A stretch of DNA of 64,000 nt from a virus (IMGVR_UViG_3300045988_123906); one strand, 5' to 3'. Positions 29,374 through 55,709 are shown, counted from the stretch's first letter. The notes: a model not told the origin generated them from the sequence alone. Made by a program: numbers and translations.

Positions 29374-29496
29374 CACGCAATAGTCGGATACCCTTTCGGG
29401 GTCGCACCGTTCAAAGCGGCCCCTTTCCAGCTCCGCAATAGGGGCGTAGCGCCTTAGAGTGTGGCGCATTGTAGACACTCAGAAAAGAGGTTCACT

Positions 29497-38201: not shown

Positions 38202-38418
38202 AGAGTTTGACTGTATTCTAAACATACATCATGGTTCGGTAATGAAATTACTCTACTGAGATGTGTTAGGTGTTTTTGCCTTGTAATTCTATTAAAGAAA
38301 ACAGCAAGGTTTGAATCAGGAGGTGAATGAGATGAACGCAATGCCCTTCGACGATTCCGCATAGCGCAAGCAGAGTCGCCGCGAAACAGATTGAGATGAA
38401 TAGCAAGTCGAAAGGTTT

Positions 38419-38681
38419 GCACGTTTAGGCCAAGCCGAACGGAACGAATTGTTAGAGTGAGATACCCCCACCCGTGGCTGCCACTGGAGGACCGAGGAGC
38501 TCAGCAGGTGACCCTACAGGGAGGAACTCACGGTACTTACGGTAGAGCCCAAATAGAAATACAGCGATGATGCGTCACTCCGAAATCCCGAACTGCGCTC
38601 GCAGCTCAACCGCAGCTCATCAACGCTGCCGGCTGCAGCGATCGCATGTGAGGCACAGGACTCCACAGATATTTAGATCTC
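38419..38681 (+). ncRNA. repeated noncoding element A
   Basis: The 5' box is GCACGTTTAGGCCAAGCCGAACGGAACGAATTGTTAGAG and the 3' box is ATTTAGATCTC. It has a GC-rich structured interior and no convincing ORF. Confidence 0.45.
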
Positions 38682-38815
38682 AATTTGAAACAAAAGTACA
38701 TAATCAAATAAGAAAGCGAGTTGAAAACTATGTTGAAAACCGGTCCTCCCATGTGAGGAATCTCGTATTTTACGAGCAGATTTGTGATGAATTGTTATCT
38801 GGTTTTACCATGATA

Positions 38816-39058
38816 GCACGTTTAGGCCAAGCCGAACGGAACGAATTGTTAGACTGAGGGGACACCCCCGAGGAAGGCGGAAGACGCGTCGACTGCAGGT
38901 ACCAGACATCGCTGGCCACACCGAACGGTGCCATCAGGGGGTCAAATGAAACTTAAAACACCCCAACCGACGCATCCAACAACCAAATTTGGGCCACAAC
39001 CCCTGGTTCATGAAAGATCTCCATCTCCAGCTAGTAGCTTCAGACAGATTTAGATCAC
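38816..39058 (+). ncRNA. repeated noncoding element B
   Basis: Its 5' box matches that of A over 37 nt. This is followed by a GGGG-ACA-CCCC hairpin. The 3' box is ATTTAGATCAC. Confidence 0.45.
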
Positions 39059-39146
39059 AAATCGCCTATATTATAATAATGAAGGTTGTGATAAGAGCAA
39101 CAAATACAAACAAAATGTAATGCTGTCATTTGTGAATATTTTCCAA

Positions 39147-39174
39147 TTGACAACGATACGTTTTTGTGTAATAC
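39147..39174 (+). promoter_or_regulatory. sigma-70/sigma-A-like promoter candidate
   Basis: TTGACA, 16 nt, TAATAC, with a TGTG just upstream of the -10. It lies about 55 nt before ATG 39229. Confidence 0.45.
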
Positions 39175-39228
39175 TTGTTTCAAGCGAAACACACTTTACA
39201 ATACCAAACGAAAAGGATGAGGTAAAAA

Positions 39229-40629
39229 ATGAATGCGAATGTAGTAATGCAAGTAGCCACCACCAAGCAGTTCGGTGACATGGAGATTCAGGTCTATGAG
39301 AATCCGGCGGTCGATCACACCAGAGCTCAGGATGATTTCTATATGACCCGTGAGCAGATTGGCACGGCGTTGGGATATAAGAATCCTTCAATTTCGATTG
39401 GAACGATTCACAAGCGCAATGCGGCTCGTCTCGACCCGCTTTCAGGGTTAATCAATTTGATTAACCCTTGTGGAAAACAGCAGACCTACGTATATAATAT
39501 GCGTGGTGTCATGGAGATCTGCCGTTACAGCACTCAACCCAAAGCGAATGCTTTCATTGATTTCTGCTGGGATGTGATCGCCGCTCTGATGCGGGGTGAA
39601 ACCGTATCGCTGAATGCCAATCAGACTGAGCTCAAGCGGCAGGAGCGATTCGACAAGATGACTCAGACGCTGACGGAGATTCATTCTAAGATGGACGCTC
39701 TCGAAGCCGCACGCCAGCAGGACCGCAACGCTCTCGACAATGTGTTGTTCGTCTGTAAGCAGCTGGAACGAAAGCTTATCTCGATGGGTCAGCCGCAGAA
39801 GCAGCCTGAGCAGACCGCCACAACTGCCACAGTCACCGCAAAGGAAACCCACACCACTACATACAAAGGACGCAGCGAATGGCGGACTGAGATTTACAAG
39901 CTCGGCAACTCTATCGCTCGCATGACTGGTCTGACGCTGAATGCGGTTCTGAAACAGGCTTATGATTATATCGGTCGCAACTATGGCTGGTATTTCAAAG
40001 ACGAACGCAAGGCGTATGTTGAGCGGGTCGGCTACATGGGTGACATCAAGAACCTCAGCGGCTTGGACATTATCGAGGACAGCGAAACGTGGAAGTCGAT
40101 CTTTATGTCGATCATGAAGGATCGGTATGATAACGAAAAGCATGACGCTGAGGTCCGAAAGGGGATTAAGTCTGCACTCACCAAGAAGCCGCCTATGATC
40201 CCTGCTGATATGATTCCTACTCGCCACAGAGTAGAACCTGCTCCCGAGGTCGTTGCTGAAGAACCCGCACCGGTCGTTGTGGCCGAGGCTCACGCGGTCG
40301 AGATTGAAACACCGGCGGCTGAAACACCGGCAGTCGAAGCTCCTGCGGTCGAAGAGCCGAAAAAGAAATATTATTACTACAAGCCGAGTATTACGCTTCC
40401 GATCGTTGAACCCATTGCAAAAAAGCTGGGCGATAAGACGCTTGGGTATTGGGTTACCTATGCAAAGATCTATGACGCAATCGGCACTGCAAAGATGGAC
40501 CGAATGCGTAAAGCGTATGTACGTTCTCACAATAAGCCGCCCAAGTCTACTCCTGATATCTTCCAGAATTCTGATAAGAACATGAAAGTGTTTAAGGAGG
40601 CTGCAAAGATCGTGGCGGCAGCTATCTAA
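39229..40629 (+). CDS. Bro-N/antirepressor-like protein with Ala/Glu/Pro/Val repeat linker
   Basis: 466-aa ORF. The N-terminus (FGDMEIQVYENP...FYMTREQIGTALGY) resembles Bro-N-type domains. The linker is VEPAPEVVAEEPAPVVVAEAHAVEIETPAAETPAVEAPAVEEP. Confidence 0.5.
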   Translation: MNANVVMQVATTKQFGDMEIQVYENPAVDHTRAQDDFYMTREQIGTALGYKNPSISIGTIHKRNAARLDPLSGLINLINPCGKQQTYVYNMRGVMEICRYSTQPKANAFIDFCWDVIAALMRGETVSLNANQTELKRQERFDKMTQTLTEIHSKMDALEAARQQDRNALDNVLFVCKQLERKLISMGQPQKQPEQTATTATVTAKETHTTTYKGRSEWRTEIYKLGNSIARMTGLTLNAVLKQAYDYIGRNYGWYFKDERKAYVERVGYMGDIKNLSGLDIIEDSETWKSIFMSIMKDRYDNEKHDAEVRKGIKSALTKKPPMIPADMIPTRHRVEPAPEVVAEEPAPVVVAEAHAVEIETPAAETPAVEAPAVEEPKKKYYYYKPSITLPIVEPIAKKLGDKTLGYWVTYAKIYDAIGTAKMDRMRKAYVRSHNKPPKSTPDIFQNSDKNMKVFKEAAKIVAAAI

Positions 40630-40687
40630 GCTATCTACTTCCTCCATTAGCCTTTGAGGCTGGCAGCCGGGAAAGACCGGCATATAA

Positions 40688-40766
40688 CCGGGTGTGGCGA
40701 AGTTGGTATCGCGCTAGGTTTGGGACCTAGAGATTTTCGCCCGTTCGAGTCGGGTCACCCGGACCA
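40688..40766 (+). tRNA. tRNA-Pro (anticodon TGG)
   Basis: Cloverleaf by eye: acceptor CCGGGTG/CACCCGG, D arm GCGA-AGTTGGTA-TCGC, anticodon arm CTAGG-TTTGGGA-CCTAG, T arm GCCCG-TTCGAGT-CGGGT, encoded CCA. The variable region is unusually long at about 8 nt. Confidence 0.65.
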
Positions 40767-40789
40767 CAGCATAGGGCTTTATCCTTTCT

Positions 40790-41319
40790 CCCTGTGCAAA
40801 AAAAGCGAAGTTTTTTCTCTTTCACTTTTCCTTTTTCTTCGCTCGTGGCTGAAAATGCCGGGCAGGTACGATAATCCTGCTTTGATATGGAGCTGATGGT
40901 CGTACAACAGTTCGATTCTGTTGGGCTCCAGCTAGGTTCGATGCAGCGGCGTAGTGTAGTACAAAGCTGCTGGGGTGGCGCAATTCCACCGTGGGTGATC
41001 ATACTCCCCCTCTGACACACCCATAACGCTCTGACCGAAAATAATATCCATGATGCAACGGGAGTAGCTACCCGCCACAGTGGATGTGCATGGCTCTATT
41101 ATGAGTAGGCGAATTTGGCACTGCCTGCGAAAGTGGCATAGATGCTCGGTGCCCAGAGTATCGGAGAGTGATTTAAAAGGGCAGCCTTTGAGGATGGACA
41201 CCATAAGAGACCAATTCGCTTATGTGTTGTATCCGCTGACGCGACTGAGTATTGCGCAAACTTTGTAAGCCGCTTGCTCCTCGCCGATGCCGTTACATGG
41301 TTAAATCCTCCTCTCTTAT
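40790..41319 (+). ncRNA. candidate large structured noncoding region between tRNAs (class unknown)
   Basis: About 530 nt with no credible ORF. It contains an acceptor+T-arm minihelix (GGAGCTG...AACAG-TTCGATT-CTGTT-GGGCTCCA, about 40891-40933). It also has nested helices such as GGCAC-TGCC-TGCGAAAG-TGGCA...GTGCC (41117-41153). Confidence 0.3.
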
Positions 41320-41410
41320 GCCGGTATCGCTCAGCGGCTAGAGCACTGGGTTTATACCCCTTGGTCCAGATAAGACAGAGGCGCGGGTTCGAGTCCTGCT
41401 ACCGGCACCA
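41320..41410 (+). tRNA. tRNA-like gene with aberrant anticodon region
   Basis: The acceptor (GCCGGTA/TACCGGC), D arm (GCTC-AGCGGCTA-GAGC), T arm (GCGGG-TTCGAGT-CCTGC) and CCA are all good. The 37 nt between the D and T arms cannot be folded into a 5-bp/7-nt anticodon arm. Confidence 0.45.
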
Positions 41411-41443
41411 TTTTTAGTAACATTTTGAAAGAAGGTATGAATC

Positions 41444-41698
41444 ATGGCAAATCTGAATATCAAAGAAATCGTTGAATGGATGATCGAAGAAGCGAAAAAT
41501 AAGGCTTCCGATAGCATCGCAATCATTGATGAAGGAGAAATCGTTAAAAAGTTCGGAGTGGAGTCTGGATGGCTTCAGAGCCATGGTCCAGAAATTTATC
41601 ACGAGTGCGATCAGCACTCAGAAGTTTTGGACTCTTTGATTTACACTGGAAATGATAGAGATTATTGGTCTATTCAGCTTACTATTAACAAGGAGTAA
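41444..41698 (+). CDS. hypothetical protein
   Basis: 84-aa ORF. Confidence 0.6.
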   Translation: MANLNIKEIVEWMIEEAKNKASDSIAIIDEGEIVKKFGVESGWLQSHGPEIYHECDQHSEVLDSLIYTGNDRDYWSIQLTINKE

Positions 41699-41704
41699 AT
41701 CAAA

Positions 41705-42376
41705 ATGGCTGATAAATATCTCAGTATTATCACGAACTTCGGGTGCCACTACAGCTGCCCTGAGTGTATCGTCCGCAATAATAAGCTCAAGATGACGCCG
41801 ACAGGGGAGTATTCTTCTTACGCTCCGCTGTGGCAAGTTCTTCATAACGAATGCAAAGACTGCAACTGGGTATCTGTGTCTGGTGGCGGCGATCCGTTGT
41901 ATCACTGGTGGGAGCATCAGGCATGGTGGCTTGGCTTTTTCGAGATGTGCCAACGCTCTGGACGCAGGACCGAACTGCATACCAGTTACTTCGACGCAGA
42001 AAACAATCACGAGATTATGTTGTTTCCGTTTGGTAAGTTCGACCGTGTTGTATATCACCTGCATACGACAGATGAGATGGACAATGTTTGTCGTCGAGGC
42101 AACGAAATCGTTCGTGTGGTCTTTGTTGTGGACGACGATATGACTGAGGACGAAATCAATGGAATCGCTGATTATGTCGAAACGTCTAACGAGATCGACG
42201 AGCTTACCTTCCGGCAGCGTGTGGACGAGCACTACAAAGAAACTTACCATCTGCACGACTTCCTACTGGCTGGTCATCAGAAACGCTGGTGGTATGTCAC
42301 CCAGTGCGATTACAATACCTACTTCCATAACGGTAAGCTGTATACCAAGTATACTGATATCTTTGATAAGGAGTGA
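41705..42376 (+). CDS. small radical SAM enzyme
   Basis: The CX3CX2C cluster motif is present near the N-terminus (NFGCHYSCPEC), plus a GGE-like SAM motif (VSVSGGGDPLY). The 223-aa size is that of an activase or QueE-class enzyme, with no SPASM-type extension. Confidence 0.65.
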   Translation: MADKYLSIITNFGCHYSCPECIVRNNKLKMTPTGEYSSYAPLWQVLHNECKDCNWVSVSGGGDPLYHWWEHQAWWLGFFEMCQRSGRRTELHTSYFDAENNHEIMLFPFGKFDRVVYHLHTTDEMDNVCRRGNEIVRVVFVVDDDMTEDEINGIADYVETSNEIDELTFRQRVDEHYKETYHLHDFLLAGHQKRWWYVTQCDYNTYFHNGKLYTKYTDIFDKE

Positions 42377-42690
42377 TTCAGATGTACATCGTCGTAAGCG
42401 ATTACACCAACGAGAAAGCTGATATCTACAAGTCGGTAAGTATCGATAAAGCATTCAAATCAAGAGACGATGCGATTGCTTTTGCCGCTGTCAGCTTTCA
42501 GTGTTTTCTCAATGGGATGCCTGAAGATGAGGCCGCTCGGTATGAAGATGCAGTGAAAGTTGACACTGAATCATACGCTGATTTTTGCGGATGCGAGTTG
42601 AACCCATATCCTGAGTATGTTATCGGTGCGGCAGTCGGCGATGGTGAAGATAATCACATGTACTACATGGTGTTTGAAGTAGAGGAGTGA
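42373..42690 (+). CDS. hypothetical acidic protein
   Basis: 105-aa ORF with a 4-nt overlap with the radical SAM gene. Confidence 0.6.
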   Translation: MIQMYIVVSDYTNEKADIYKSVSIDKAFKSRDDAIAFAAVSFQCFLNGMPEDEAARYEDAVKVDTESYADFCGCELNPYPEYVIGAAVGDGEDNHMYYMVFEVEE

Positions 42691-42730
42691 CCTGCGCAAG
42701 CAGTGGCGGCTCGGAAAGACGAGCGTATAT

Positions 42731-42810
42731 GGCCCCATGGCGAAATTGGCACACGCGGCAAGTTCAAACCTTGCTTATTGTTCCCGGTTCAAATCCGGGT
42801 GGGGCTACCA
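42731..42810 (+). tRNA. tRNA with anticodon CAA (Leu codon UUG) but a short variable region
   Basis: Acceptor GGCCCCA/TGGGGCT, anticodon arm GCAAG-TTCAAAC-CTTGC, T arm CCCGG-TTCAAAT-CCGGG, encoded CCA. The variable region is about 8 nt rather than a class II arm. Confidence 0.55.
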
Positions 42811-42897
42811 CCGGCTCGATCGAGTCGGGAGCTTATTGGGTGAAACGGTTTGGCAAATCGGAAAGACGGTTGACTGCTGGACAGACAGCTTTGATAT

Positions 42898-42986
42898 GCC
42901 GCTATGGTGAAATCAGGCTAGACACATCGAACTTAAGATTCGACGGTAGTAATATCATCTGGGTTCGAATCCCAGTAGCGGTACCA
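42898..42986 (+). tRNA. tRNA-Leu (anticodon TAA), class II
   Basis: Acceptor GCCGCTA/TAGCGGT, 3-bp D stem, anticodon arm TCGAA-CTTAAGA-TTCGA, about 15-nt variable arm, T arm CTGGG-TTCGAAT-CCCAG, encoded CCA. Confidence 0.7.
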
Positions 42987-43074
42987 CCCCGAAAGGGGTA
43001 ACATAATAACTCTTGTCAATTATTCTCGGCTCGCTCGAAAGGGTGCAATTGGCCTTGTAAGCCGAGTATCTTAT

Positions 43075-43146
43075 GCGATTGTAGCTCAGTTGGTAGAGCA
43101 GCAGGCTGAATGCGCGTCGGTGGTTCAAGTCCATCCAATCGCACCA
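43075..43146 (+). tRNA. tRNA-like gene, Phe(GAA)-like but with a 4-nt-short anticodon arm
   Basis: The acceptor (GCGATTG/CAATCGC), D arm (GCTC-AGTTGGTA-GAGC), T arm and CCA are all good. The anticodon region GCAGGCTGAATGC looks like GCAGG-CTGAAAA-CCTGC with 4 nt missing. It may be a pseudogene. Confidence 0.4.
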
Positions 43147-43279
43147 GGGTTCCTGTCTTTTTGGTATGTTACTCAGCAGGGACCTTTTACCTCATTCTTG
43201 TTATTCCCGGCTCTTTTAATACGATGCTTCGGTCTATATCGTATCGAAAGCAACAAGGCTTTGTAAGCCGGGTTTATAT

Positions 43280-43354
43280 GCAGCGGTCGTATAACGGTGA
43301 ATGTGCCAGCCTTCCAAGCTGGAGATGTGGGTTCGACTCCCATTCGCTGCTCCA
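43280..43354 (+). tRNA. tRNA-Gly (anticodon TCC)
   Basis: Acceptor GCAGCGG/TCGCTGC, anticodon arm CCAGC-CTTCCAA-GCTGG, T arm GTGGG-TTCGACT-CCCAT, encoded CCA. Confidence 0.7.
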
Positions 43355-43543
43355 TGCCGCAAGGCAAGACAGCTTTGCCCATTAGGTCTCTAACAAAATG
43401 GGGAATAGGTACATGGTGGTAAAAGTACGATCAATAAAATAGCCACGACTTCCTTGTTGCGCCCTAATGTTTCGGATATTGTGGTCCGAAATGGAAGTTG
43501 TCCTGCTTGGAGAATCGGGAGAGCAGGTGTACCTAATTTATAT

Positions 43544-43624
43544 GCGGCTATGGTGGAATAGGCAGACACGCCAAATTTAGGATCTGGTCTTCGGGTGAGG
43601 GTTCAAGTCCCTCTAGCCGCACCA
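43544..43624 (+). tRNA. tRNA with anticodon TAG (Leu codon CUA), 9-nt variable region
   Basis: Acceptor GCGGCTA/TAGCCGC, anticodon arm CCAAA-TTTAGGA-TCTGG (one A-C mismatch), T arm GAGGG-TTCAAGT-CCCTC, encoded CCA. This is not a CUA suppressor. Confidence 0.55.
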
Positions 43625-43661
43625 TGTTCGAATATCAACACACAAAAAGAAGGAACGCAAA

Positions 43662-44024
43662 ATGATTTATCTTTATAAAAGTGATTTGACAAGAGCAAAA
43701 GAAATGAACCAAAAATGCCGGGAGGCTGGTGTGATTGCTCTGGATTGTGAGGGCAATGATTCCGACATGTATGGATGGCCTGATACTTTTTACCTGTATT
43801 TCCCCACAGAGGAATCTATCAAGCTATTCAACGATCTTTCTGATTACCTTCACATTGAGCGGACTGGCTTGTATATTATCCATAACGATAGTGGCGTGTT
43901 TTGTATTCCGGTTGACTATTATGCAGCCCAGTTTAAGGCTTTTACGCAAAACAATAATCGAGGAAAAACGAAACAGCTTATGAGGGTTGAGAATTTCAAA
44001 GAAGAGGAGGGCACAGCCGTATGA
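43662..44024 (+). CDS. hypothetical protein
   Basis: 120-aa ORF. Confidence 0.6.
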   Translation: MIYLYKSDLTRAKEMNQKCREAGVIALDCEGNDSDMYGWPDTFYLYFPTEESIKLFNDLSDYLHIERTGLYIIHNDSGVFCIPVDYYAAQFKAFTQNNNRGKTKQLMRVENFKEEEGTAV

Positions 44025-44395
44025 ACTCCATTATCAATCCTTGGGTGTTCTACTGGATTGGCATCGTAGATAGTGTCAGAACACTACTAATCGTCATTCT
44101 AACCGTGCTTATGATCGGAGGAGCGATTATGTTCATATGTACTATGAGCGATGCAGACGATCGTGGCTTTAAAGACAAAGATGTAGCCGAGGAAGTAAAA
44201 CTCTGCATCAAGGTTGCAATTGCAACTTTTGTTGTCGCGGTTCTGGTTTGTGTGGTTCCTTCTGAAGATACCTGCTATAAGATGCTCGCCGCTGATATGT
44301 TTACGCAGGATAACATCAACAACGCCACTGAGTATGTCACTGACGTGATCGATTATGCGGTCGACAAGGTCAAAGAAATGGATAGAAAGGACTGA
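44021..44395 (+). CDS. membrane protein (3 TM)
   Basis: 124-aa ORF with hydrophobic helices and a 4-nt overlap upstream. Confidence 0.6.
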   Translation: MNSIINPWVFYWIGIVDSVRTLLIVILTVLMIGGAIMFICTMSDADDRGFKDKDVAEEVKLCIKVAIATFVVAVLVCVVPSEDTCYKMLAADMFTQDNINNATEYVTDVIDYAVDKVKEMDRKD

Positions 44396-44400
44396 GTAAC

Positions 44401-44649
44401 ATGGACGAGAGAAAATTCTGTATCGGTGATCGCGTAAGGCTTGAGTCTCCGTGGGGTCCTGATGATCCCAATGAGGGTAAAGAGGGAATTGTTGTTGGGT
44501 ATACAGAAGATACCGATTGTCTTCAAGTGCAGCTCTGCGATGGGTACACATGGAGCAAGCCAGAATTTCGCCTGATCGAGCACCTGCATGATGATTGGTG
44601 GGCACCTGTAGAGTCAACCAGTGAATGCCGCTGCGAGTCTCTGCTTTAA
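44401..44649 (+). CDS. CxC-tail family member P8 (SH3-like-looking body; tail SECRCESLL)
   Basis: 82-aa ORF, a solitary copy far from both arrays. Confidence 0.65.
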   Translation: MDERKFCIGDRVRLESPWGPDDPNEGKEGIVVGYTEDTDCLQVQLCDGYTWSKPEFRLIEHLHDDWWAPVESTSECRCESLL

Positions 44650-44702
44650 TTTTTTTCGCCATCCAAACACACTTTACACTGTCAAATGAAAGGAGAAAAC
44701 GG

Positions 44703-44831
44703 ATGCATATCAAGTATGTGGACGGCCATTATGAAATCGTGTCGGCGGATAATGGCCAGTTCATTCAGTCGGCCGACACATGGGACGAGGCTCTTGACGA
44801 TATGAAAGAGCTGCTAACAACAACGGTATAA
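44703..44831 (+). CDS. small hypothetical protein (42 aa)
   Basis: ATG 44703 follows AAAGGAG. Product begins MHIKYVDGHYEIVSADNGQF... Confidence 0.45.
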   Translation: MHIKYVDGHYEIVSADNGQFIQSADTWDEALDDMKELLTTTV

Positions 44832-44886
44832 CGAGCAAACCGGCTCGTTTACATAACATTTTTTTATTATAAAGGAGATCAATATT

Positions 44887-45318
44887 ATGAAGGCAACTGT
44901 TAAGTACAACAACGTTTTCGTCACTTCCGCTTACGACATCGAGACCCTGAAGAAGGTCAAGAAGTTCCGTCCCGAGGCTCTGGTTCTGTACAAGGGCGAG
45001 GGCAAGGAGAAGGAGCCTGTCTGCGCTATCGGTGTCAGCGGTTCTGCTTCTGCCAATGAGATGGGCGTGACTTTCGCAAAGAATTCTGTCACCACTCCCA
45101 AGGTCGCTACCATGAGCATCGAGCTGCCCAACGGCAAGACCACCGTCGAGGAGATTAACGAGTTCGTTCGTGAGAAGCTGGGTCTGGCCATCGTGAACTG
45201 CACCAAGATCGAGGAGCAGATCGCCGAGGCTATGAGCTCTATCGCTGCTGATGAGGCCGCTATGAACGCTGCTATCACCATCGAGAACGACGCTGAGCCT
45301 GAGGCCGCCGCTGAGTAA
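44887..45318 (+). CDS. abundant hypothetical protein (possible PRTRC-E-like position)
   Basis: 143-aa ORF with capsid-like GC3 codon bias and an acidic Ala-rich C-terminus. Confidence 0.65.
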   Translation: MKATVKYNNVFVTSAYDIETLKKVKKFRPEALVLYKGEGKEKEPVCAIGVSGSASANEMGVTFAKNSVTTPKVATMSIELPNGKTTVEEINEFVREKLGLAIVNCTKIEEQIAEAMSSIAADEAAMNAAITIENDAEPEAAAE

Positions 45319-45361
45319 GAGCGCCGCCTGGTAAGAGCGCCGCCTGGTAAGAGCGCCACTG
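45315..45361. repeat. 16-nt tandem repeat x3 at the stop codon
   Basis: GTAAGAGCGCCGCCTG, GTAAGAGCGCCGCCTG, GTAAGAGCGCCACTG. The first unit contains the TAA stop of the 44887 gene. Confidence 0.8.
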
Positions 45362-45470
45362 TGGTTCCACGCCGGATGTTCCAGCGCAATACGTCCGGCA
45401 TTCGTTTTAGATGATTCGTCAATCCGACGTTTCAACAATAAATTTTTCAAATTAAAAAGGAGTACATATT

Positions 45471-45701
45471 ATGCTGAAGATCACTGTGGGTACCAACACC
45501 AACCGTAAGACTGTCATGGCTACTGAGGACACTACCCTGCGTCAGTGCCTGGAGGAGAACGATATCAACTACTCTGCTGGTCAGACCTCTCTGGATGGCT
45601 GTGTTCTGCAGCCTGGCGACATGGATAAGACCTTTGCCGATATGCACGTTACCGAGAAGGCTTATCTGGTCTGTGTTCAGAAGATGGACAACGCCCGTTA
45701 A
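45471..45701 (+). CDS. ubiquitin-like (beta-grasp) small protein candidate
   Basis: Its 76 aa equal ubiquitin in length, and the strand-helix-strand outline is compatible (MLKITVGT..RKTVMATEDTTLRQCLEEN..). It is codon-biased and lies two genes upstream of the JAB and E1-like genes. It has no C-terminal GG (ends KMDNAR). Confidence 0.45.
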   Translation: MLKITVGTNTNRKTVMATEDTTLRQCLEENDINYSAGQTSLDGCVLQPGDMDKTFADMHVTEKAYLVCVQKMDNAR

Positions 45702-45887
45702 GGAATTAACGGAGTCTGATCCTGAATCTGTTCGAGCGAATCTCGAATAAAGTCCGAATGTAAATCTGTTCTGGTTACAACAGATAAATAGCATTGCAGC
45801 CGCTGGCAGGCCGGTTAAAGTCTGCCTTATATGTGTCCAGTATCTGGGCTTTTAAATGCAAGATATGAATTTAAGGAGGAAGTAACT

Positions 45888-47363
45888 ATGGCATTCACTG
45901 GTTTGCTGACGAAGCTCGGCTCGAACGAATGCAACGAATTTTTCTCTGACATCAAGAGCAGGAACAAATTCGAAACCGAAGATAACACTGTCCTGACCGT
46001 TCTCCGGGCAGTGATGAACGAGGAGCGGCTGGCGACCTTTACCGTTGATCCCGAGAACAAGGGCATCATGCAGTCTCTGGTGGTCGAGAACGAGATCCGG
46101 CTTCCGGACGATGAGAAGCTGACAGCAGCCTATTACGCTGGTGAGCGTGGTCCGTTCACAAAGATCAAGCTCGGTCTGTATTTCCATTTCATCCCCAACA
46201 AGAAAGCAGCCGATTACATCAAGCAGGTGAAAATGTTCGACGAGGACTATAAGAAGGCGGGCTGGGTTCGTCTTGAGGATGTCTCTCTGTATGTCGATCG
46301 CAGCGGTGACGCTCTGGTCTATCAGAACGAAACCAAGCAGGCGACTATGGTGTTCGCTCCTTCGCCCAAGAGAATCCAGGTCATGCAGATGATGATGAGC
46401 TGTCTGCCTCGTCTGCTTCCGTGGGCATTCAAGGATCACCCGGCAACCAGGGATGAACTCGATCTGCTGAAGATGCTGGCTGAGCAGAAGTATGACAAGT
46501 TCAATGCGGCAATCGACAAGATCTGTGCAGCTTATGACTTCTACGGCAAGAAAGTCGAAAGCATGCTCAAGGGATTCTGCAGTCAGAACTTCACCCGCTC
46601 GATCCACGATCAGGAAGAACGTGTCCGCCGGGCAGAGAACAACGTCAACGATTATATGAGCAGCGCCCGCAATGCCATGAAGCAGGTGGATGAAGAGCAG
46701 ATGAAGCTTCTGGTGCTCCGGAATCGTGCCTGCAACTCTGGAGACGATGAGAAGGAGCTGGTCGATTTCTTCAAGGCGAACAAATCTCTTATCGCTCTGG
46801 ATAAGTCCGGCAATCAGCTGTGGGTCGGCGTGAACTGCTATCTGAATGACTACAACGAAGATATCTTTAAGCAGTATGTCGAAAAGCAGGATAAGATGTC
46901 CAGCTACATCTACGAGGAGAGCCCGTATGATATGGATCTCACCAAGAAGCTGTTCCTGGCTATCTGGAAAGAGCACCGGTTCAATCTGCGTGTCTACTGC
47001 GAGTGGATTGTCTATGATGACTGCCGCGTCGAAGCCGTCAGAAGCACTAACATGAATCACCGAGAAGACCTGATGAAGAATCGTTTTCCTCAGCCGCATA
47101 TCGACCGGTTTACCTGTTACGGCGGCTATCGCGGTATGCTTCAGGATCTGGCTCTCCGCCGTGATTACATCGGCGTTTTGTCTACTCTGGTGACTTCTTC
47201 TTCCTATATCAACTGGACGGATTCTACGGTCGTCGAATGGATGATGGAAAAGCTGTTCGGCGATTATAGTAATCGGAAGTGTCTGGAAGATAAGGATGGT
47301 AATCTCTACACCATCAAACAGGTGGTTGAGATCCTGGAAAACGAAAGCAGAGAAACGGCATAA
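45888..47363 (+). CDS. large hypothetical protein of the Ubl-JAB-E1 cassette
   Basis: ATG 45888 follows AAGGAGG. 491 aa with no motif recognised by eye. The antisense ORF 45852..47099 is a shadow. Confidence 0.65.
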   Translation: MAFTGLLTKLGSNECNEFFSDIKSRNKFETEDNTVLTVLRAVMNEERLATFTVDPENKGIMQSLVVENEIRLPDDEKLTAAYYAGERGPFTKIKLGLYFHFIPNKKAADYIKQVKMFDEDYKKAGWVRLEDVSLYVDRSGDALVYQNETKQATMVFAPSPKRIQVMQMMMSCLPRLLPWAFKDHPATRDELDLLKMLAEQKYDKFNAAIDKICAAYDFYGKKVESMLKGFCSQNFTRSIHDQEERVRRAENNVNDYMSSARNAMKQVDEEQMKLLVLRNRACNSGDDEKELVDFFKANKSLIALDKSGNQLWVGVNCYLNDYNEDIFKQYVEKQDKMSSYIYEESPYDMDLTKKLFLAIWKEHRFNLRVYCEWIVYDDCRVEAVRSTNMNHREDLMKNRFPQPHIDRFTCYGGYRGMLQDLALRRDYIGVLSTLVTSSSYINWTDSTVVEWMMEKLFGDYSNRKCLEDKDGNLYTIKQVVEILENESRETA

Positions 47364-47376
47364 GGAGGTTTGAAGT

Positions 47377-48354
47377 ATGCAGCCGGTTAAGATGAATGAC
47401 GAACTGATCCAGGGAATTTTGCAGGAGTTCTATGCACAGGCTTCTGCGTTGGGTAATCTGCAGGCGGATAAGTTCTCCTTTAACAAGAATTTTTCCAAGC
47501 CTGCCAAGGACGCAGTCGAGGTGAATTTCACTCTGGAAGCTTATCACGAGATGTGTGCCCTGATCGATCACTTCAGTACCGAGGTCGCCTGGCACGGTCT
47601 GGTGAATCGCATTGATAAGACTCACTTCCAAATCACCAAGATCCTGGTTTATCCGCAGCAGGTCACGGGCGCAACAGTGAATACGGACCAGGAAAAGTAT
47701 ACGACCTGGCTGTATGAGCTGGACGATGAATCCTTTAATACGCTGCGGTTCCAGGGCCACAGTCATGTGAACATGAGCACTTCTCCCAGCGGTGTGGATA
47801 TGCAGAATCAGTGGGATCTCATTGATACTCTGAGCTCTGAGGATTACTACGTCTTTATGATCTGGAACAAGCGGCGGGAGTATAACGTCCGTGTTGTGGA
47901 CATGGCGGACAATGTCATCTACAGCGGCGATGATGTCAAGGTGACGATTGGAGAGGCCGATACGAAAGGGTTTCTCGAACAGGCGGAAGCGCTCGTCCAA
48001 AAGCCGGTCACAACCACATACAGCGGCTACAACAATGGCTACAGCGGCAACTACAATGGTGCAGCTTACTCCGGCAACTACAGCGCGGGTACAGCAGCTT
48101 ATCAGGGAGGCGCGTTCGTTGGTAACACAAGCTCCGCAGCCGCGTCCACGAAAACAAAAGCAGAAACGAAACCGGCAGCCACGACGAACCCGGCGCTGAA
48201 AACTGTCACGGGTGGAGCCGCCCCTAAGATCGATTCAGCCAAGAGCAAGGGAAGCGAATCCAATCTGATGAAGTATTATCAGGAGAATCCGAACGACCTG
48301 ATGAACAATTGGAATTCGAGCTGCTATCCCTACGCTGACGCATTCCAGGACTAA
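47377..48354 (+). CDS. JAB/MPN (JAMM) metalloprotease with Tyr/Gly/Asn-rich C-terminal region
   Basis: The JAMM motif H-x-H-x7-S-x2-D is present as HSHVNMSTSPSGVD, with an upstream Glu (EVAWHG). The C-terminus is low complexity (YSGYNNGYSGNYNGAAYSGNYSAG). Confidence 0.7.
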   Translation: MQPVKMNDELIQGILQEFYAQASALGNLQADKFSFNKNFSKPAKDAVEVNFTLEAYHEMCALIDHFSTEVAWHGLVNRIDKTHFQITKILVYPQQVTGATVNTDQEKYTTWLYELDDESFNTLRFQGHSHVNMSTSPSGVDMQNQWDLIDTLSSEDYYVFMIWNKRREYNVRVVDMADNVIYSGDDVKVTIGEADTKGFLEQAEALVQKPVTTTYSGYNNGYSGNYNGAAYSGNYSAGTAAYQGGAFVGNTSSAAASTKTKAETKPAATTNPALKTVTGGAAPKIDSAKSKGSESNLMKYYQENPNDLMNNWNSSCYPYADAFQD

Positions 48355-48368
48355 GAAAGGAAACAACA

Positions 48369-49049
48369 ATGGATCTGAGCAAAATCGAAATGGTGTTTGA
48401 CCCTGCGTCTGTTAAGGGTCGCATTCATATCATCGGCTGTGGTTCGGTCGGCTCTACTGTGGCTGAACTGCTGGCACGATACGGTCTGACCAAGTTCACT
48501 CTGTGGGATATGGACTTTGTCGAACCCAAGAATATCGTCAACCAGATGTTCTTCCAGCAGGATATCGCCCATCCCAAGGTGGAAGCTGTGGGGAACATTC
48601 TGTGCAATGTGAATCCTGATATCAAAGAGGATCTGGTTCTGATGCCCAATGGCTGGCAGGGCGAAACCGTCAAGGGTTATGTGTTCCTGGCCGTGGACAG
48701 CATCGAGATCCGCAAGCAGTTCCTGGAGAAGAATAAGTACAATCCTGAGCTGCTCGGTGTGTTCGATATCCGCACTGGCCTGTATGATGCACAGTGCTGG
48801 TCGGCCGATTGGAAGGATCGCAAGCAGATCGACAATCTGAAGAACTCCATGAACTTCACTCACGAGGAAGCAAAGGTAAGTACGCCGGTGTCTGCATGTG
48901 GCATTGTTCAGGGTGTTGCACCGACCGTTCGTTTCATCTGCTGTCTGGCGGTTACGAACTTTATCAATTTCGTGGGAGGCAACCAGCTGAAGAAGCAGAT
49001 CGTTGCAACCCCGTTCATTCTGGGTGAAGAGAGCGTCATGGCGTTCTGA
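48369..49049 (+). CDS. ThiF/E1-like adenylyltransferase
   Basis: Rossmann motif IIGCGSVGS followed by WDMDFVEPKN (the E1 D-x-D-x-V-x3-N pattern). 226 aa. Confidence 0.7.
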   Translation: MDLSKIEMVFDPASVKGRIHIIGCGSVGSTVAELLARYGLTKFTLWDMDFVEPKNIVNQMFFQQDIAHPKVEAVGNILCNVNPDIKEDLVLMPNGWQGETVKGYVFLAVDSIEIRKQFLEKNKYNPELLGVFDIRTGLYDAQCWSADWKDRKQIDNLKNSMNFTHEEAKVSTPVSACGIVQGVAPTVRFICCLAVTNFINFVGGNQLKKQIVATPFILGEESVMAF

Positions 49050-49097
49050 TAAAATCGTAAATAAAAAAATCGTGATGAATAGTTGTTTTTATAAACA

Positions 49098-49329
49098 GCG
49101 CACTTAGGCCAAGCCAAGTGTATCGAATTGTTAAGAAGAGGGGGTCCTCCCCCTGTGGCATCAACATTGCAAAACTAAACGCGTGCCGCCGGATGACGGT
49201 GCTACCACAGGGTTCGAAACGATCTTCCTGGGTCACCCGAATGCGGTTATATAGCCAATTTCAGCATCCAATCATGATCGGGACCTCCTACAGCATGCAT
49301 TATAGCCTCAAGAAACCCATTTAGATCAC
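49098..49329 (+). ncRNA. repeated noncoding element C (immediately upstream of the RT gene)
   Basis: The 5' box is GCGCACTTAGGCCAAGCC..TCGAATTGTTAAGA. This is followed by a GGGGG-TCCT-CCCCC hairpin. The 3' box ATTTAGATCAC lies 23 nt before the RT ATG. Confidence 0.45.
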
Positions 49330-49352
49330 GATGAAATCATAAAGGAGAAACA

Positions 49353-50585
49353 ATGTACATTACATATCTGAATCCTCCTAAGACTCGGCAGATCACTTTT
49401 GATGAGATCCTTGCCGGTGTCCAGAATGTAGAAGCACTGCACTATGGCGGCAGCAACACATCTACAATGACCGTGTGCCGCAATGACTTAACCGCCAAAC
49501 TTCGCGCTATCACAAATGTTCCTGAGATGATCGAGAAGTTGGTGGACTACAACGTGAAATATGCGACGCTTGAATCCAGCGATATCCCGAGTCACTATTC
49601 TCACTTTGAGATTCCAAAGAAATCTGGTGGCTGGCGACCCATTGATGCGCCAGATGAAACTCTTTCTGATGCACTGATCGAGCTGCGGGAACTGCTGAAG
49701 AGCTTTATGATCGCAGATTATCACACGAATGCTTTCGCATATATTCCCAATCGCAGCTTTATCGATGCGGTCCGTAAGCATCAGGCAGGTCACAATAAAA
49801 CCGTCGTTGATGAGGCGACCGGCATGAAAAAGGTCGTCAATTATCAGAATCATTGGGCGGTCAAGTTCGACTTCCATGGTTTCTTTCCCAGTACGACACC
49901 GGATTTTCTGCTCGGCATGATGAGTGTGATCTATCCATTTGCTCTGATCATGCGGGATGCACATGGCCGAGATGAACTGGCAAAGGCGGTCAACCTGTGC
50001 TTTCTTCGCAACGGCCTGCCGCAGGGAACTCCCATCAGTCCGTGGCTTACCAATGTGATGATGATTCCGTTTGACCACTGTATCACTCGCAAGCTGTGCT
50101 ATGGCTACAAAGCAAAGGACGGCATCGATCGCGAGTTTACTTTCACACGATATGCAGATGATATCCTCATCAGCTGTTATCATCACTTTGACCCGATGGA
50201 AATTCAGCAGATCATCATTGATGCGTTGAACTTCTTTCATGCGCCGTTTACTCTGAACGAAACGAAAACGCATTACGGCAACCGGCACTCCAGCAAGAAC
50301 TGGTGTCTCGGCTTGATGTGGAATAAGGACAATCAGATCACGGTTGGCTGGCGCAATCTTAAAATGTTCCGTTCGGCTATGACGAACTATATCGATACAA
50401 AGCAGCATGGCAGGACCTGGGAGCTGGAAGATCTGCAAAAGTTCAATGGCAAGCTCAACTATTATCACATGGTCGAGCCTGAGGTGATCGACGAGCTGGT
50501 TCGTCGTTACAATGCAAAGTTCGGCACTGATATTATTGCGATGCTCAAAGAAGATCTTCGTCCCAAAGAGGGCGTTGTTGCATAA
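49353..50585 (+). CDS. reverse transcriptase (retron/UG/Abi-like, not DGR-like)
   Basis: RT motifs present: IPKKSGGWRPIDAP, KFDFHGFFPS, GLPQGTPISPWLTN, YADDILIS and NETKT. 410 aa with no endonuclease domain seen. Confidence 0.85.
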   Translation: MYITYLNPPKTRQITFDEILAGVQNVEALHYGGSNTSTMTVCRNDLTAKLRAITNVPEMIEKLVDYNVKYATLESSDIPSHYSHFEIPKKSGGWRPIDAPDETLSDALIELRELLKSFMIADYHTNAFAYIPNRSFIDAVRKHQAGHNKTVVDEATGMKKVVNYQNHWAVKFDFHGFFPSTTPDFLLGMMSVIYPFALIMRDAHGRDELAKAVNLCFLRNGLPQGTPISPWLTNVMMIPFDHCITRKLCYGYKAKDGIDREFTFTRYADDILISCYHHFDPMEIQQIIIDALNFFHAPFTLNETKTHYGNRHSSKNWCLGLMWNKDNQITVGWRNLKMFRSAMTNYIDTKQHGRTWELEDLQKFNGKLNYYHMVEPEVIDELVRRYNAKFGTDIIAMLKEDLRPKEGVVA

Positions 50586-50617
50586 AAAATGGAGACATAC
50601 ACAAGGAGTGATGATCT

Positions 50618-50965
50618 ATGATTGAAATTATGTGCCGGGATGGAAAGGTCCCATCGAAGGAGCTCGAAAAGGTCGCGGATATGATCTACTATTCCACGGG
50701 CATCGAAACAGAGGTGGTCTACGAAGAGGATCGGAGAGCCCTAGTGTTCTGGGGCCCTGAGGATGTCAAAGAGATCGTGGAAAGTTTGAATCTGAAATCG
50801 ATCAACACAGACGATACCAATTTCTGCGATACCATTGTGGCCGCCGCAGAGCCGCGCATTCACCAGGCAATGCTGGAAGCCGGCAGAGATGTCCTGTTTG
50901 ATGAAGTCTGTGAAACGGCTGCATCCATGGGCGAACAAATCGAATTCGATGAGCCCAATCAGTAA
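50618..50965 (+). CDS. hypothetical acidic protein
   Basis: 115-aa ORF directly after the RT gene. Confidence 0.6.
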   Translation: MIEIMCRDGKVPSKELEKVADMIYYSTGIETEVVYEEDRRALVFWGPEDVKEIVESLNLKSINTDDTNFCDTIVAAAEPRIHQAMLEAGRDVLFDEVCETAASMGEQIEFDEPNQ

Positions 50966-51017
50966 TCAGTAAACAAAAAATCACTTTGCATATCGTTCCA
51001 AAAGAGCGAGCATCACG

Positions 51018-51218
51018 CCCAAGGCGGATGTTAAGAAGAATACCCCAGCAATCGGCCGCTGCACTCCGCCATAGGCCCCTGATCGTGCAGCTGGCCTCAA
51101 ACAATCCTTGTCAAGAAACACTCGTCCTTCGATCCGGGACGAAAGTCACGCGCCAGGTCGCGTGACAGAAGTCCCTGATCGTGCGTCCTCCCGTTTCCAG
51201 AGCATCGGATTTAGAAAG
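51018..51218 (+). ncRNA. repeated noncoding element D (divergent copy, downstream of the RT unit)
   Basis: Partial 5' box CCCAAGGCGGATGTTAAGAAGAA. Internal direct repeat CCCTGATCGTGC x2. Hairpin GTCACGCG-CCAG-GTCGCGTGAC. Partial 3' box GATTTAGAAAG. Confidence 0.35.
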
Positions 51219-51250
51219 TGATTTTGATAAAAAGAAAATGAGGTAGAAAT

Positions 51251-52045: not shown

Positions 52046-52867
52046 ATGGCAGAACCGGCACGTAAGCGCAAGGATCGCGTAGTTCAGTTCCCGCAACAGC
52101 CTGGTTCCGAAGCTCACATCACCATGAGCGAAGCCGAGCTGAAGGAAATGATTTGGGACATCGTGGCTGCCGCTCGCAAGAAAAAGCGCAAGACAAAGCC
52201 AACCAACAGCCTTTATACAAAGGATGGCCGCATCAAACCTTCGCCTGCTGATCCGATTCGTTCCAAAGAGGATTTCCAGAAACTGGCGAATTATCTCGCT
52301 TCCAACGGCGACCCCAAGTTTCGTCTACGCAACAAGGCGATTTTCGTGTTCGGGTGCAGTCTGGGTATTCGTTGTGGCGATCTTCTCAGTCTGAAAACGG
52401 CCGATGTTTACGAACAGGATGGCAGTGTGAAAGAGCATGTCGAACTGATCGAAGAAAAGACCCGTAAGCGCAATGTGTGCAAGATCCCTAAGATGGCAGC
52501 TGACATTCTTGAGGATTATTTCGATGAACAGAATTTCGAGATTAGTCAATCTGATTATCTGTTTCGCAGTCGCAAGGGTGGTCCTCTGACAGTGCGCGGA
52601 TTTTATCGGATCTTGAAAGAAGCAGGGAAAGCGTGTGAGCTAGATATCGATCTGTCCACTCATACCATGCGCAAAACCTATGCAATGGCTGCACTTCAGA
52701 CAGCGAAAAAAGCTGGTACATCTGGGCAAACGATCGAGATGCTTCAAGAAAAGTTTAAGCATAGCAGCCAGCGTGTCACGATGCATTATGTCAAGGCAGA
52801 CCAGGATAAGATGGACGAAATGTCTGATCGTGTGTCGGACTGGTTCGATGATGGAGGAACGGAATGA
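52046..52867 (+). CDS. int: tyrosine recombinase / integrase
   Basis: Catalytic pattern present: GIRCGDLLSL (Arg), HTMRKTYA (H-x-x-R) and HSSQRVTMHYV (His...Tyr). 273 aa. Confidence 0.8.
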   Translation: MAEPARKRKDRVVQFPQQPGSEAHITMSEAELKEMIWDIVAAARKKKRKTKPTNSLYTKDGRIKPSPADPIRSKEDFQKLANYLASNGDPKFRLRNKAIFVFGCSLGIRCGDLLSLKTADVYEQDGSVKEHVELIEEKTRKRNVCKIPKMAADILEDYFDEQNFEISQSDYLFRSRKGGPLTVRGFYRILKEAGKACELDIDLSTHTMRKTYAMAALQTAKKAGTSGQTIEMLQEKFKHSSQRVTMHYVKADQDKMDEMSDRVSDWFDDGGTE

Positions 52868-54594: not shown

Positions 54595-55698
54595 ATGAAA
54601 GTTGTTGAAAGCGCAAGCAATCTGTTCCTGTATGGCGACGATATGAAGGCGTATGACAAGATCCCGGCGGGTACCTATGATATCCACTGTTCTGAGATGA
54701 CCGGTTTCTATCTGTCCCGCCGCCCTGATATGGTCATCAACGAAAAGGTGTATGGTGTCCAGAGCAGCAAGGTTGCCAAAGTGCTGAATTCGTTCAAAGT
54801 GTTCAACCGCAACCTGGGTGTCATCCTCAGCGGCAACAAAGGCATCGGCAAATCTCTGATCGCTAAGATGATTGCAATCGAGGCCGTCAAGCAGGGCTAT
54901 CCTGTCATTCTGGCTAACCGCTATATCGGCGGTATCGCCAATTTCATTGAATCCATCGATCAGGAAGTTATGATCCTGTTTGACGAGTTTGATAAAACCT
55001 TCAAGTCCCGGGATAATGAAAATCCGCAGGATACGATGCTGAGTCTGTTCGATGGCACCAGCGCGGGCAAAAAGCTCTTCGTTGTCACCTGTAACCAGCT
55101 CAATGGTCTGAACGATTATCTGGTCAACCGTCCCGGCCGCTTCCACTATCACTTCCGCTTCGATTACCCGGGCGCTGATGAGGTCGAAACCTACCTCAAG
55201 GATAAGCTCGAAGAGAAGTATTACGATCAGATCCCAGCTGTGGTCGATTTTTCTGGCAAGATCGATCTGAACTATGACTGCCTGCGGTCTATCGCCTTTG
55301 AATTGAATCTGGGCACTCCATTCGCAGAGGCCATCAAGGATCTGAATATCATCAATATGAACGAGACCAGCTACAAGCTCACTGTTATCTTCAAGGATGG
55401 TTACCGTGCGTCCAGCACCAAGCGTTTTGATATGTTCAATGGTGCACAGCGTATCTGTTTTGATGTCAAGCTGAAAGATGGCTACTGGCCTGATTTCTAT
55501 ATCAATACTGAGGATATCCAGTATAACCCCGCCAACGGTGAGCAGTTCATTGATGGAAAGAAGATTGATGTGGATAATCCGTATTCCAAGAGTGATGACG
55601 ATGAAAAGGATCGTTATGAAGCTTTTGAAAAGGACAACGGTGTGGTCAAAGTCATCATCTCTCGTACTCGTGAAAGAGACATTCACTACATGGTCTAA
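54595..55698 (+). CDS. AAA+ ATPase
   Basis: Walker A is GNKGIGKS, Walker B is MILFDEFD, and the sensor/Arg region is NRPGRFHYHF. 367 aa. Confidence 0.75.
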   Translation: MKVVESASNLFLYGDDMKAYDKIPAGTYDIHCSEMTGFYLSRRPDMVINEKVYGVQSSKVAKVLNSFKVFNRNLGVILSGNKGIGKSLIAKMIAIEAVKQGYPVILANRYIGGIANFIESIDQEVMILFDEFDKTFKSRDNENPQDTMLSLFDGTSAGKKLFVVTCNQLNGLNDYLVNRPGRFHYHFRFDYPGADEVETYLKDKLEEKYYDQIPAVVDFSGKIDLNYDCLRSIAFELNLGTPFAEAIKDLNIINMNETSYKLTVIFKDGYRASSTKRFDMFNGAQRICFDVKLKDGYWPDFYINTEDIQYNPANGEQFIDGKKIDVDNPYSKSDDDEKDRYEAFEKDNGVVKVIISRTRERDIHYMV

Positions 55699-55709
55699 GG
55701 AGGCTCAAT

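Follow-up and report, generated by a model that had tools for sequence, protein, structure and literature searches.

Introduction

Retrons are bacterial anti-phage systems composed of one reverse transcriptase (RT), one RNA, and one effector, and the prophage-borne retrons Ec67 and Ec73 each carry a single msr-msd with a fused or adjacent effector and function in host defense. The retron RNA is bordered by terminal inverted repeats that hybridize with each other and contains a conserved branching G, from the 2′-OH of which synthesis is primed, as well as one to three msr hairpins and an msd stem-loop that is reverse transcribed from a point beside the 3′ repeat (Mestre et al. 2020, PMC7736814). 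Retrons with a single RNA have been reported in prophages (PMC8867640, PMC7736814), and retron arrays with one RT have been engineered for multiplex editing as 'multitrons' (PMC10370050), in the description of which a natural counterpart is unmentioned. In this study, four related noncoding elements (A to D) and the RT gene that they accompany were investigated in a stretch of 64,000 nt of viral DNA (IMGVR_UViG_3300045988_123906), the whole of which is hereafter called the window.

Elements A to D are probably four retron-type msr-msd RNA genes served by a single phage RT of the retron family. The view taken in the original prediction, which had been made from the DNA sequence alone and which regarded structured RNAs as template or primer for the adjacent RT, is supported. 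It was also remarked there that several related RNAs together with a phage RT would be unusual, and in the full-text literature searched, the coverage of which is incomplete, no description of a natural multi-RNA retron or of a phage retron array was found. With respect to novelty, the locus was classified as a retron-family RT with retron-type RNAs, arranged as a multi-template array in large gut phages without a canonical effector.

Structure of the four elements

All four elements were present in the 64-kb window at the places given in the original prediction, and the family that had been recognized there was borne out. Their true starts were found to lie 30-41 nt further 5′ and their ends 3-7 nt later than had been proposed; a terminal inverted repeat forming the a1/a2 stem, a G that invariably follows a1, and one more hairpin, P1, all of which point specifically to a retron, had been overlooked. 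With the corrected borders, each element on the plus strand consists of a1, G, (A/C)AUA, the hairpins P1 and P2, a box of the (CG)AAUUGUUAGA type, a GC-rich interior of 175-220 nt, UUUAG, and a2. Element A (38387-38687) contains a1 (38387-38397), the candidate branching G (38398), P1 (38403-38420), P2 (38422-38441), the GAAUUGUUAGA box (to approximately 38458), a variable interior or putative msd (approximately 38459-38676, ending in UUUAG), and a2 (38677-38687), and element B (38779-39063), in tandem with A, contains a1 (38779-38788), the candidate branching G (38789), P1, P2, and the box (to approximately 38855), the interior (approximately 38856-39053), and a2 (39054-39063). Element C (49069-49332) occupies the canonical retron position 20 nt 5′ of the RT start codon, not 23 nt as had been counted before, and consists of a1 (49069-49076), the candidate branching G (49077), P1 (49082-49099), P2 (49101-49120), the box (to approximately 49137), the interior (approximately 49138-49324), and a2 (49325-49332). 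Element D (50977-51225), the diverged member, has a1 at 50977-50987, the candidate branching G at 50988, P1, P2, and the UUAAGAAGA box to approximately 51039, the interior at approximately 51040-51214, and a2 at 51215-51225.

The 5′ boxes of A and B were identical, as predicted, over 38 nt instead of 37 nt (GCACGTTTAGGCCAAGCCGAACGGAACGAATTGTTAGA), and blastn aligned them over 43 nt at 97.7%. The core TTAGGCCAAGCC was confined to A, B, and C, with exactly three occurrences in the 64 kb, and four of the five plus-strand ATTTAGA sites of the window were located at element 3′ ends. Scanning of the 64-kb window with a covariance model built from the 5′ module (R1) yielded exactly four matches (A, 73.7 bits; B, 60.9 bits; C, 86.9 bits; D, 58.2 bits), and D is judged to be a true diverged member because the four copies scored 58-87 bits and the next best match 17 bits. 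At the gathering score, Rfam release 15 detected only tRNAs and RAGATH-5 in the window and nothing within the elements at E≤10, and the search with cmscan that had been proposed with the original prediction thus assigned the elements to no family.

Terminal stems, hairpins, and covariation

In related phages, ATCGTGAT was conserved upstream of the RT gene, approximately 30 nt before the originally predicted 5′ box, and its reverse complement ATCACGAT followed directly after the 3′ box. A scan of the window revealed this arrangement in all four elements, with a different sequence each time: ATTGAGAT (a1) and ATCTCAAT (a2) form an 11-bp stem in A, GATTTGTGAT and ATCACAAATC a 10-bp stem unlike that of A in B, ATCGTGAT and ATCACGAT an 8-bp stem in C, and AAAATCACTTT and AAAGTGATTTT an 11-bp stem in D. 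In 4/4 of these terminal stems of 8-11 bp, a G stands right after the 5′ arm and AG right before the 3′ arm. Of 32 elements examined, 31 had a stem of 8-12 bp, whereas one copy in L067 had a stem of only 5 bp. Among 28 distinct elements, the 12 positions flanking G and AG were paired in 86% of cells (32-48% when one arm was slid), 11 of the 12 pairs had both partners changed, and three features never varied, namely the U-A pair that closes the stem, the G behind it (28/28), and the AG in front of a2. AAUG was conserved in at least 80% of 150 family-wide matches.

Hairpin P1 is located between the G after a1 and the previously recognized box, and the box itself folds into hairpin P2, with a stem of 5-6 bp, a bulged A, an inner stem of 3-4 bp, and a CAA loop. 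Compensatory changes were evident in P2 (CGUUU...GAACG in A and B, CACUU...AAGUG in C, CAUC.CGCC...GGCGGAUG in D), and D retains the same shape with the inner stem GGC/GCC replaced by GCC/GGC. In 16 diverse 5′ modules, P1 and P2 were paired in 87.7% of cells (31-45% slid), 14/15 pairs were altered on both sides, and the covariation score was 0.65, against ≤0.16 for slid alignments. Minimum free energy folding with the corrected borders gave a closed a1/a2 stem and formed P1 and P2 in 4/4 elements, and the interiors appeared as GC-rich branched folds, which in three elements (B, C, and D) rest on a closing basal stem. From 37 orthologs of C, RNAalifold recovered a1/a2, P1, and P2 as well as local hairpins of the interior, with compensatory changes. 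Comparative folding of A to D and their homologs, which had been suggested along with the original prediction, thus disclosed covarying P1, P2, and a1/a2.

Reverse transcriptase

The RT gene (49353-50585, plus strand) encodes a retron-type protein of 410 aa with an intact YADD motif and an N-terminal extension. The protein matched RVT_1 in Pfam (E 1.5e-15) and, with the best score in PADLOC, RT_II-A (E 2.5e-37); among the 25 of 67 PADLOC matches listed, all were RT models and 24/25 were named retron types. In NCBIfam, retron_St85_RT was matched with 142 bits (E 1.9e-41), the group II intron RT with 73 bits, Drt2 with 39 bits, and Drt3a with 27 bits, and the best PDB sequence matches were the RTs of retrons Ec83, Ec78, Ec67, and Ec86. 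Judged from these matches, the RT is a member of the retron/retron-like clade, in agreement with the earlier description of its motifs as of the retron or 'unknown group' (UG) type, and the classification against reference models that had been recommended placed retrons well above the Drt families. No second RT or paralog was found by tblastn in the window.

Retron RTs possess a region X with NAXXH between RT2 and RT3, in which H is the most conserved residue, and a region Y with VTG in RT7, in which G is the most conserved (PMC7736814). In region X, LDNAKIH of Ec83 aligned with IDAVRKH of the present protein, with N and A replaced and with H143 invariant in 16 diverse family members; in region Y, VTG of Ec83 aligned with CLG, so that G was kept and V and T were lost. 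The family consensus of region Y was NWxLG(L/V)M, with L319 and G320 invariant in 16 diverse members.

Distribution in related phages

The RT was found in 66 related viral contigs of gut phages of approximately 145 kb at an RT identity of 41-98%. All 66 contigs possessed one element just upstream and one just downstream of the RT gene, and one or two further elements were located upstream of a Bro-N-like gene, as in the window. Scanning of 185,579 species genomes provided 76 more RT loci (37-98% RT identity); the majority were on contigs of phage size whose bins were those of gut Clostridia, with humans, ruminants, rabbits, and termites as the sources. The contigs with this RT family numbered L210 to L285, many of which were 95-150 kb long, had been binned as Clostridia, Bacteroides, Alistipes, Prevotella, 'archaeon', and Betaproteobacteria, which suggests that they are phage contigs mis-binned into metagenome-assembled genomes, and host assignment from the bin names is therefore unreliable.

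When a second covariance model (R2) was run on the RT loci with a threshold of E≤0.01, 163 elements were detected in 80 loci with related RTs (37-98% identity), and 163/163 were on the RT strand, clustered at the flanks of the RT gene. Unfiltered rescanning of 7 of the 11 loci that lacked a strong match gave 12 weak matches, again all on the RT strand and at the RT flanks. RT homologs in other phages that lack such neighboring elements would have spoken against the original prediction; the 163 co-oriented matches and the weak flank matches in the rescanned loci decisively dispose of this objection. Co-occurrence with the RT was exclusive, and co-orientation and adjacency held in phages with 37-45% RT identity and differing downstream genes.

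The number of units in relatives ranged from two to at least eight, often in tandem, and the units remained attached to the RT while their number varied. In L283, seven tandem units directly follow the RT gene (L283:395-2640), each of the form TTTGTAAT|GGATA...CAG|ATTACAAA with its own a1-G...AG-a2 and a different interior. In L228, the RT gene is preceded by one unit and followed by three (L228:5673-7970), likewise with their own a1/a2 and differing interiors, and L205 carries four units in 21 kb (L205:9664-12340 and 18797).

Variable interiors

The interiors of A, B, C, and D are U-poor and C-rich and showed no similarity among themselves, which had been correctly noted before. No similarity to the interiors was found elsewhere in the 64-kb window, and matches in 50,697 phage records were confined to orthologous regions. 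Neither GATC (Dam site) enrichment in the interiors nor k-mers common to them beyond ATTTAG were detected. The interiors are considered noncoding, because stop-free frames were not enriched in comparison with shuffled sequences and the interiors of close relatives differed by 1-nt indels.

Nucleotide diversity was computed among phages with RT proteins 96-98% identical, with gaps counted as differences, by which the following values are inflated somewhat: 0.27 for the interior of A, 0.185 for C, 0.116 for B, and 0.09 for D, compared with 0.06-0.10 for third codon positions of neighboring genes (0.06-0.07 for the genes flanking A), 0.016-0.06 for the 5′ modules of A, C, and D (0.03 for that of C), and 0.014-0.04 for other intergenic DNA. 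The 5′ module of B computed to 0.146, a value inflated by gaps because one of the two tandem copies is missing from some loci. The interiors of A and C were thus 2-4 times as diverse as the third codon positions of neighboring genes. Between phage pairs with ≥98% RT nucleotide identity, C interiors were down to 60% identical, and the divergence of the RT and that of the interior were correlated with r = 0.17. From the diversity and from this RT-independent divergence, it follows that the A and C interiors outpace approximately neutral sites or are exchanged between phages. By base, the variable fraction was 0.53 for adenine, 0.47 for cytosine, 0.62 for guanine, and 0.72 for thymine, without adenine bias, and transitions and transversions were approximately equal in number.

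Weighing of the interpretation

Several points weigh against a retron array. Transcription, priming, and cDNA synthesis and its end points are entirely inferred. The RT, with 142 bits, falls below the curated NCBIfam cutoff for St85 (235 bits), which indicates a separate subfamily; literal NAXXH and VTG are replaced by AVRKH and CLG, the protein is approximately 100 aa longer than classical retron RTs, and no known retron effector adjoining the RT was detected by the PADLOC scan. The interiors are branched instead of forming one long hairpin, and only D was more stable than shuffled sequences (z -3.2; A +0.97, B -1.4, C -0.25). The a1/a2 count is biased, because a2 was found by seeking the best complement to a1; the conserved UUAG box nevertheless sets the position of a2 on independent grounds, and fewer than 1% of elements should contain, by chance, 8 consecutive pairs next to an AG within 340 nt. 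Likewise, the family-wide pairing in 96.7% of cells (36-49% slid; 138 distinct sequences) was obtained from an alignment that had been fitted to the model structure.

Two alternatives accept the elements as genuine RNAs, and both appear unlikely. If the elements were RT substrates without retron branch priming, reverse transcribed from a protein, 3′-end, or DNA primer into repetitive or coding cDNA in the manner of the defense-associated reverse transcriptases (DRTs) DRT2 and DRT9, the divergence of the RT motifs from canonical retrons, the N-terminal extension, the weak matches to Drt2 and Drt3a, and the interiors, which exceed classical msd hairpins in length and branching, would be accounted for. 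The a1/a2 stem that abuts an invariant G, together with the invariant AG, is however an anatomy specific to retrons, the retron models scored approximately 100 bits above the Drt models, and a Neo-like gene is contradicted by the lack of enriched stop-free frames and by the 1-nt indels between close relatives. It was similarly judged improbable that the elements act without the RT as stable small RNAs, released from long phage transcripts by RNase III-type processing at the a1/a2 stem, and adjoin the RT gene only through conserved gene order. Processing is typically signaled by terminal stems around structured RNAs, the RT gene is 10 kb away from A and B, and the E1-like and JAMM-like genes upstream are also syntenic, as expected from a conservative gene order, but the 163/163 elements on the RT strand hug the RT gene even at 37-45% RT identity, and units stay with the RT although their number varies. 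Moreover, processing leaves the invariant G at the stem end unexplained, and the family of the adjoining enzyme has known substrates of the same anatomy.

The remaining alternatives do without a structured RNA substrate of a retron RT and are much less probable. Units of 250-300 bp with terminal inverted repeats of 8-12 bp, in several copies and in variable number, resemble miniature mobile elements (miniature inverted-repeat transposable element (MITE)-like or insertion sequence-derived), but this explanation is rejected because the terminal repeats covary and are not conserved in sequence: they differ yet stay complementary, which points to base pairing and not to a transposase site. Furthermore, the interiors are unrelated, the structured 5′ module is kept with compensatory changes, neither a transposase nor a target-site duplication was seen, and the orthologous positions are stable across relatives; such an origin is very unlikely. 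That the boxes are a promoter (5′) and a terminator (3′) around an unconstrained spacer, an outcome unfavorable to the original prediction, is suggested by the AT-rich flanks and by one sigma-70-like match (39049-39077) that overlaps the 3′ box of B, but seems highly improbable, as the sigma-70 scan gave no promoter-like site at any 5′ box, the intrinsic terminator scan gave no plus-strand terminator-like site at any 3′ box, the site counts equaled those of shuffled sequence, and promoters need neither compensatory hairpins nor long-range a1/a2 pairing. The probability that the locus is a diversity-generating retroelement (DGR), with the elements as template repeats, is negligible: a phage RT followed by a 115-aa protein of accessory size and a hypervariable sequence nearby would fit, but the interiors had no match elsewhere in the window (64 kb of a genome of approximately 145 kb), no adenine bias was observed among strains, the best matches of the RT were retron RTs with no DGR RT family in the Pfam, NCBIfam, and PDB results, and the hypervariable part is the noncoding element itself. 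The earlier statement that the RT does not belong to a DGR, with no pair of template and variable repeats (TR/VR) in the window, thus stands.

Neighboring genes

A gene for a 115-aa protein (50618-50965, plus strand) lies between the RT gene and D, and the coordinates agree with the earlier placement of D after this gene pair. The protein had no match in Pfam, PADLOC, PHROG, or NCBIfam, and its AlphaFold2 model (predicted local distance difference test (pLDDT) score, 72) had no significant fold match. The 25 homologs found were all close and confined to this phage group; more distant RT loci, among them L205, lack the gene, and it shows no conserved association with the RT.

Upstream of C, a trio of plus-strand genes encodes a 510-aa protein (45831-47363), a JAMM/MPN+ metalloprotease-like protein (47377-48354), and a ThiF/E1-like adenylyltransferase (48369-49049, directly before C). 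The trio was syntenic with the RNA-RT unit in approximately 57 of the 62 loci that have enough upstream sequence, even at approximately 40% identity. The adenylyltransferase protein matched the ThiF domain (Pfam, NCBIfam), and in the JAMM-like protein the motif E69...H128-S-H130-x7-S138-xx-D141 was invariant in 34 homologs, and the predicted fold matched Rpn11, CSN5, and archaeal JAMM1 (to E 7e-9). The 510-aa protein had no Pfam match above the curated cutoff (sub-threshold ZapA, E 5.7e-4) and no PHROG, NCBIfam, or PDB sequence match. This composition suggests a ubiquitin-like conjugation/deconjugation module, which is possibly coupled to the retron. E1-like and JAMM-like proteins reportedly lie outside the retron effector classes distinguished by Mestre and colleagues. 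They are also not among the classes named in PMC8867640.

Genes for RtcB, RNA ligase, NAMPT/NAPRTase, NAD synthase, Macro, Fic, and Band_7 proteins were observed in the RT neighborhoods of L205 and L209. RtcB, RNA ligase, NAD-related, Macro, and Fic functions are typical of phage counter-defense islands. Approximately 4 kb 3′ of D in the window (54595-56537), a gene for an AAA/STAND-type NTPase (367 aa) is followed by one for a 275-aa protein with a weak match to the phosphoribosyltransferase (PRTase) domain; PRTase-like proteins are the effectors of type III retrons. A small tyrosine recombinase/integrase of 273 aa is encoded at 52046-52867, approximately 800 nt 3′ of D, and is conserved at this position in closer relatives only.

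Between A/B and the RT gene, a tRNA cluster (40688-43624) comprises seven tRNAs according to Rfam and six according to ARAGORN (Pro, Ile-UAU, three Leu, and Gly), with the extra Rfam match at 43075-43143, and several of these tRNAs are unusually long (79-91 nt). The RAGATH-5 match (29384-29436, plus strand) scored 52.1 bits against a gathering score of 50 bits (E 1.1e-5), and in a simple greedy map of open reading frames the longest frame at this site was on the opposite strand. The sigma-70-like site at 39049-39077 (TTTAGA-17-TATAAT, 10/12) coincides in part with the 3′ box and a2 of B and precedes the Bro-N-like gene, for which the 3′ end of B may also serve as promoter.

Proposed mechanism and possible role

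In a retron array of this kind, each RNA would be transcribed from the plus strand and would fold with its ends paired through a1/a2. The RT would recognize the common 5′ module consisting of P1, P2, and the GUUAGA-type box, would prime from the 2′-OH of the invariant G right after a1, and would copy backwards from the invariant ...UUAG before a2 through the variable interior. Because copying would start at the invariant UUAG, all four cDNAs would begin with 5′-CTAA. The predicted products are four different branched RNA-DNA molecules, or multicopy single-stranded DNAs (msDNAs), of approximately 170-215 nt, with C in the classical position before the RT gene and A, B, and D presumably used in trans.

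With regard to function, we favor the guess that the msDNAs as a set take part in an arms race between phage and host or between phages, which is made plausible by the hypervariable interiors, the variable unit number, and the counter-defense-like neighborhood in relatives. The msDNAs might counter host immunity by acting as decoys or by mimicking antitoxins, which is the leading guess, or they might be sensors used for superinfection exclusion. The more specific proposal that in a widespread family of large gut phages the array, embedded in the E1-/JAMM-like cassette and comprising two to at least eight interchangeable, rapidly evolving template RNAs, is used offensively, with msDNA decoys or antitoxin mimics neutralizing host retrons or nucleic-acid-sensing immunity, is doubtful; if true, it would reverse the known host-defense role of retrons.

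A retron array in these phages would mean that nature builds RNA arrays for a single retron RT, which have so far been only engineered, and the retention of arrays without an effector by large, probably Clostridia-infecting gut phage lineages would point to a new use of msDNA. A template that evolves faster than third codon positions and is shuffled between near-identical phages would bear the signature of an arms race. An RT that accepts many interiors of approximately 200 nt in cis and in trans might also provide a scaffold for the production of single-stranded DNA in cells and for multiplex editing.

Comparison with known systems

The system is probably a natural retron array, and it shares individual features with several described systems. 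With DGRs, it has in common a phage RT, a noncoding template, and local hypervariability, but it differs from them in lacking a TR/VR pair and adenine-specific changes and in the clade of its RT. The stand-alone RT with a structured template RNA immediately upstream recalls the DRT/UG RTs (DRT2, DRT9), whereas the scores of the RT (Drt2, 39 bits, and Drt3a, 27 bits, compared with 142 bits for the retron model), the lack of a stop-free signal, and the retron-specific combination of a1/a2 and G set it apart. Multitrons resemble it in that several retron RNAs or msd units with different templates are served by one RT and used in trans; the present elements, unlike multitrons, are natural, and their interiors are without homology elsewhere in the window.

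Location in a phage genome is shared with the prophage retrons, in comparison with which the present locus has several RNAs and no known effector and is conserved across a family of gut phages of approximately 145 kb. The closest likeness is to the bacterial retrons Ec86/Eco1, St85/Sen2, Ec83, and Ec78: the RT was assigned to the same family by three profile libraries and PDB, and the RNA lies directly 5′ of the RT gene on the same strand and combines a1/a2, including the conserved G where a1 ends, with a pair of msr hairpins and a templated region of variable sequence. Compared with the single RNA of bacterial retrons, four RNA genes (two to at least eight in relatives) accompany the one RT here, and the locus is situated on a large phage without a recognizable effector and not in a defense island. 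In contrast to those of the bacterial retrons, the RT carries AVRKH and CLG and is approximately 100 aa longer, and the interiors of 175-220 nt are branched and hypervariable.

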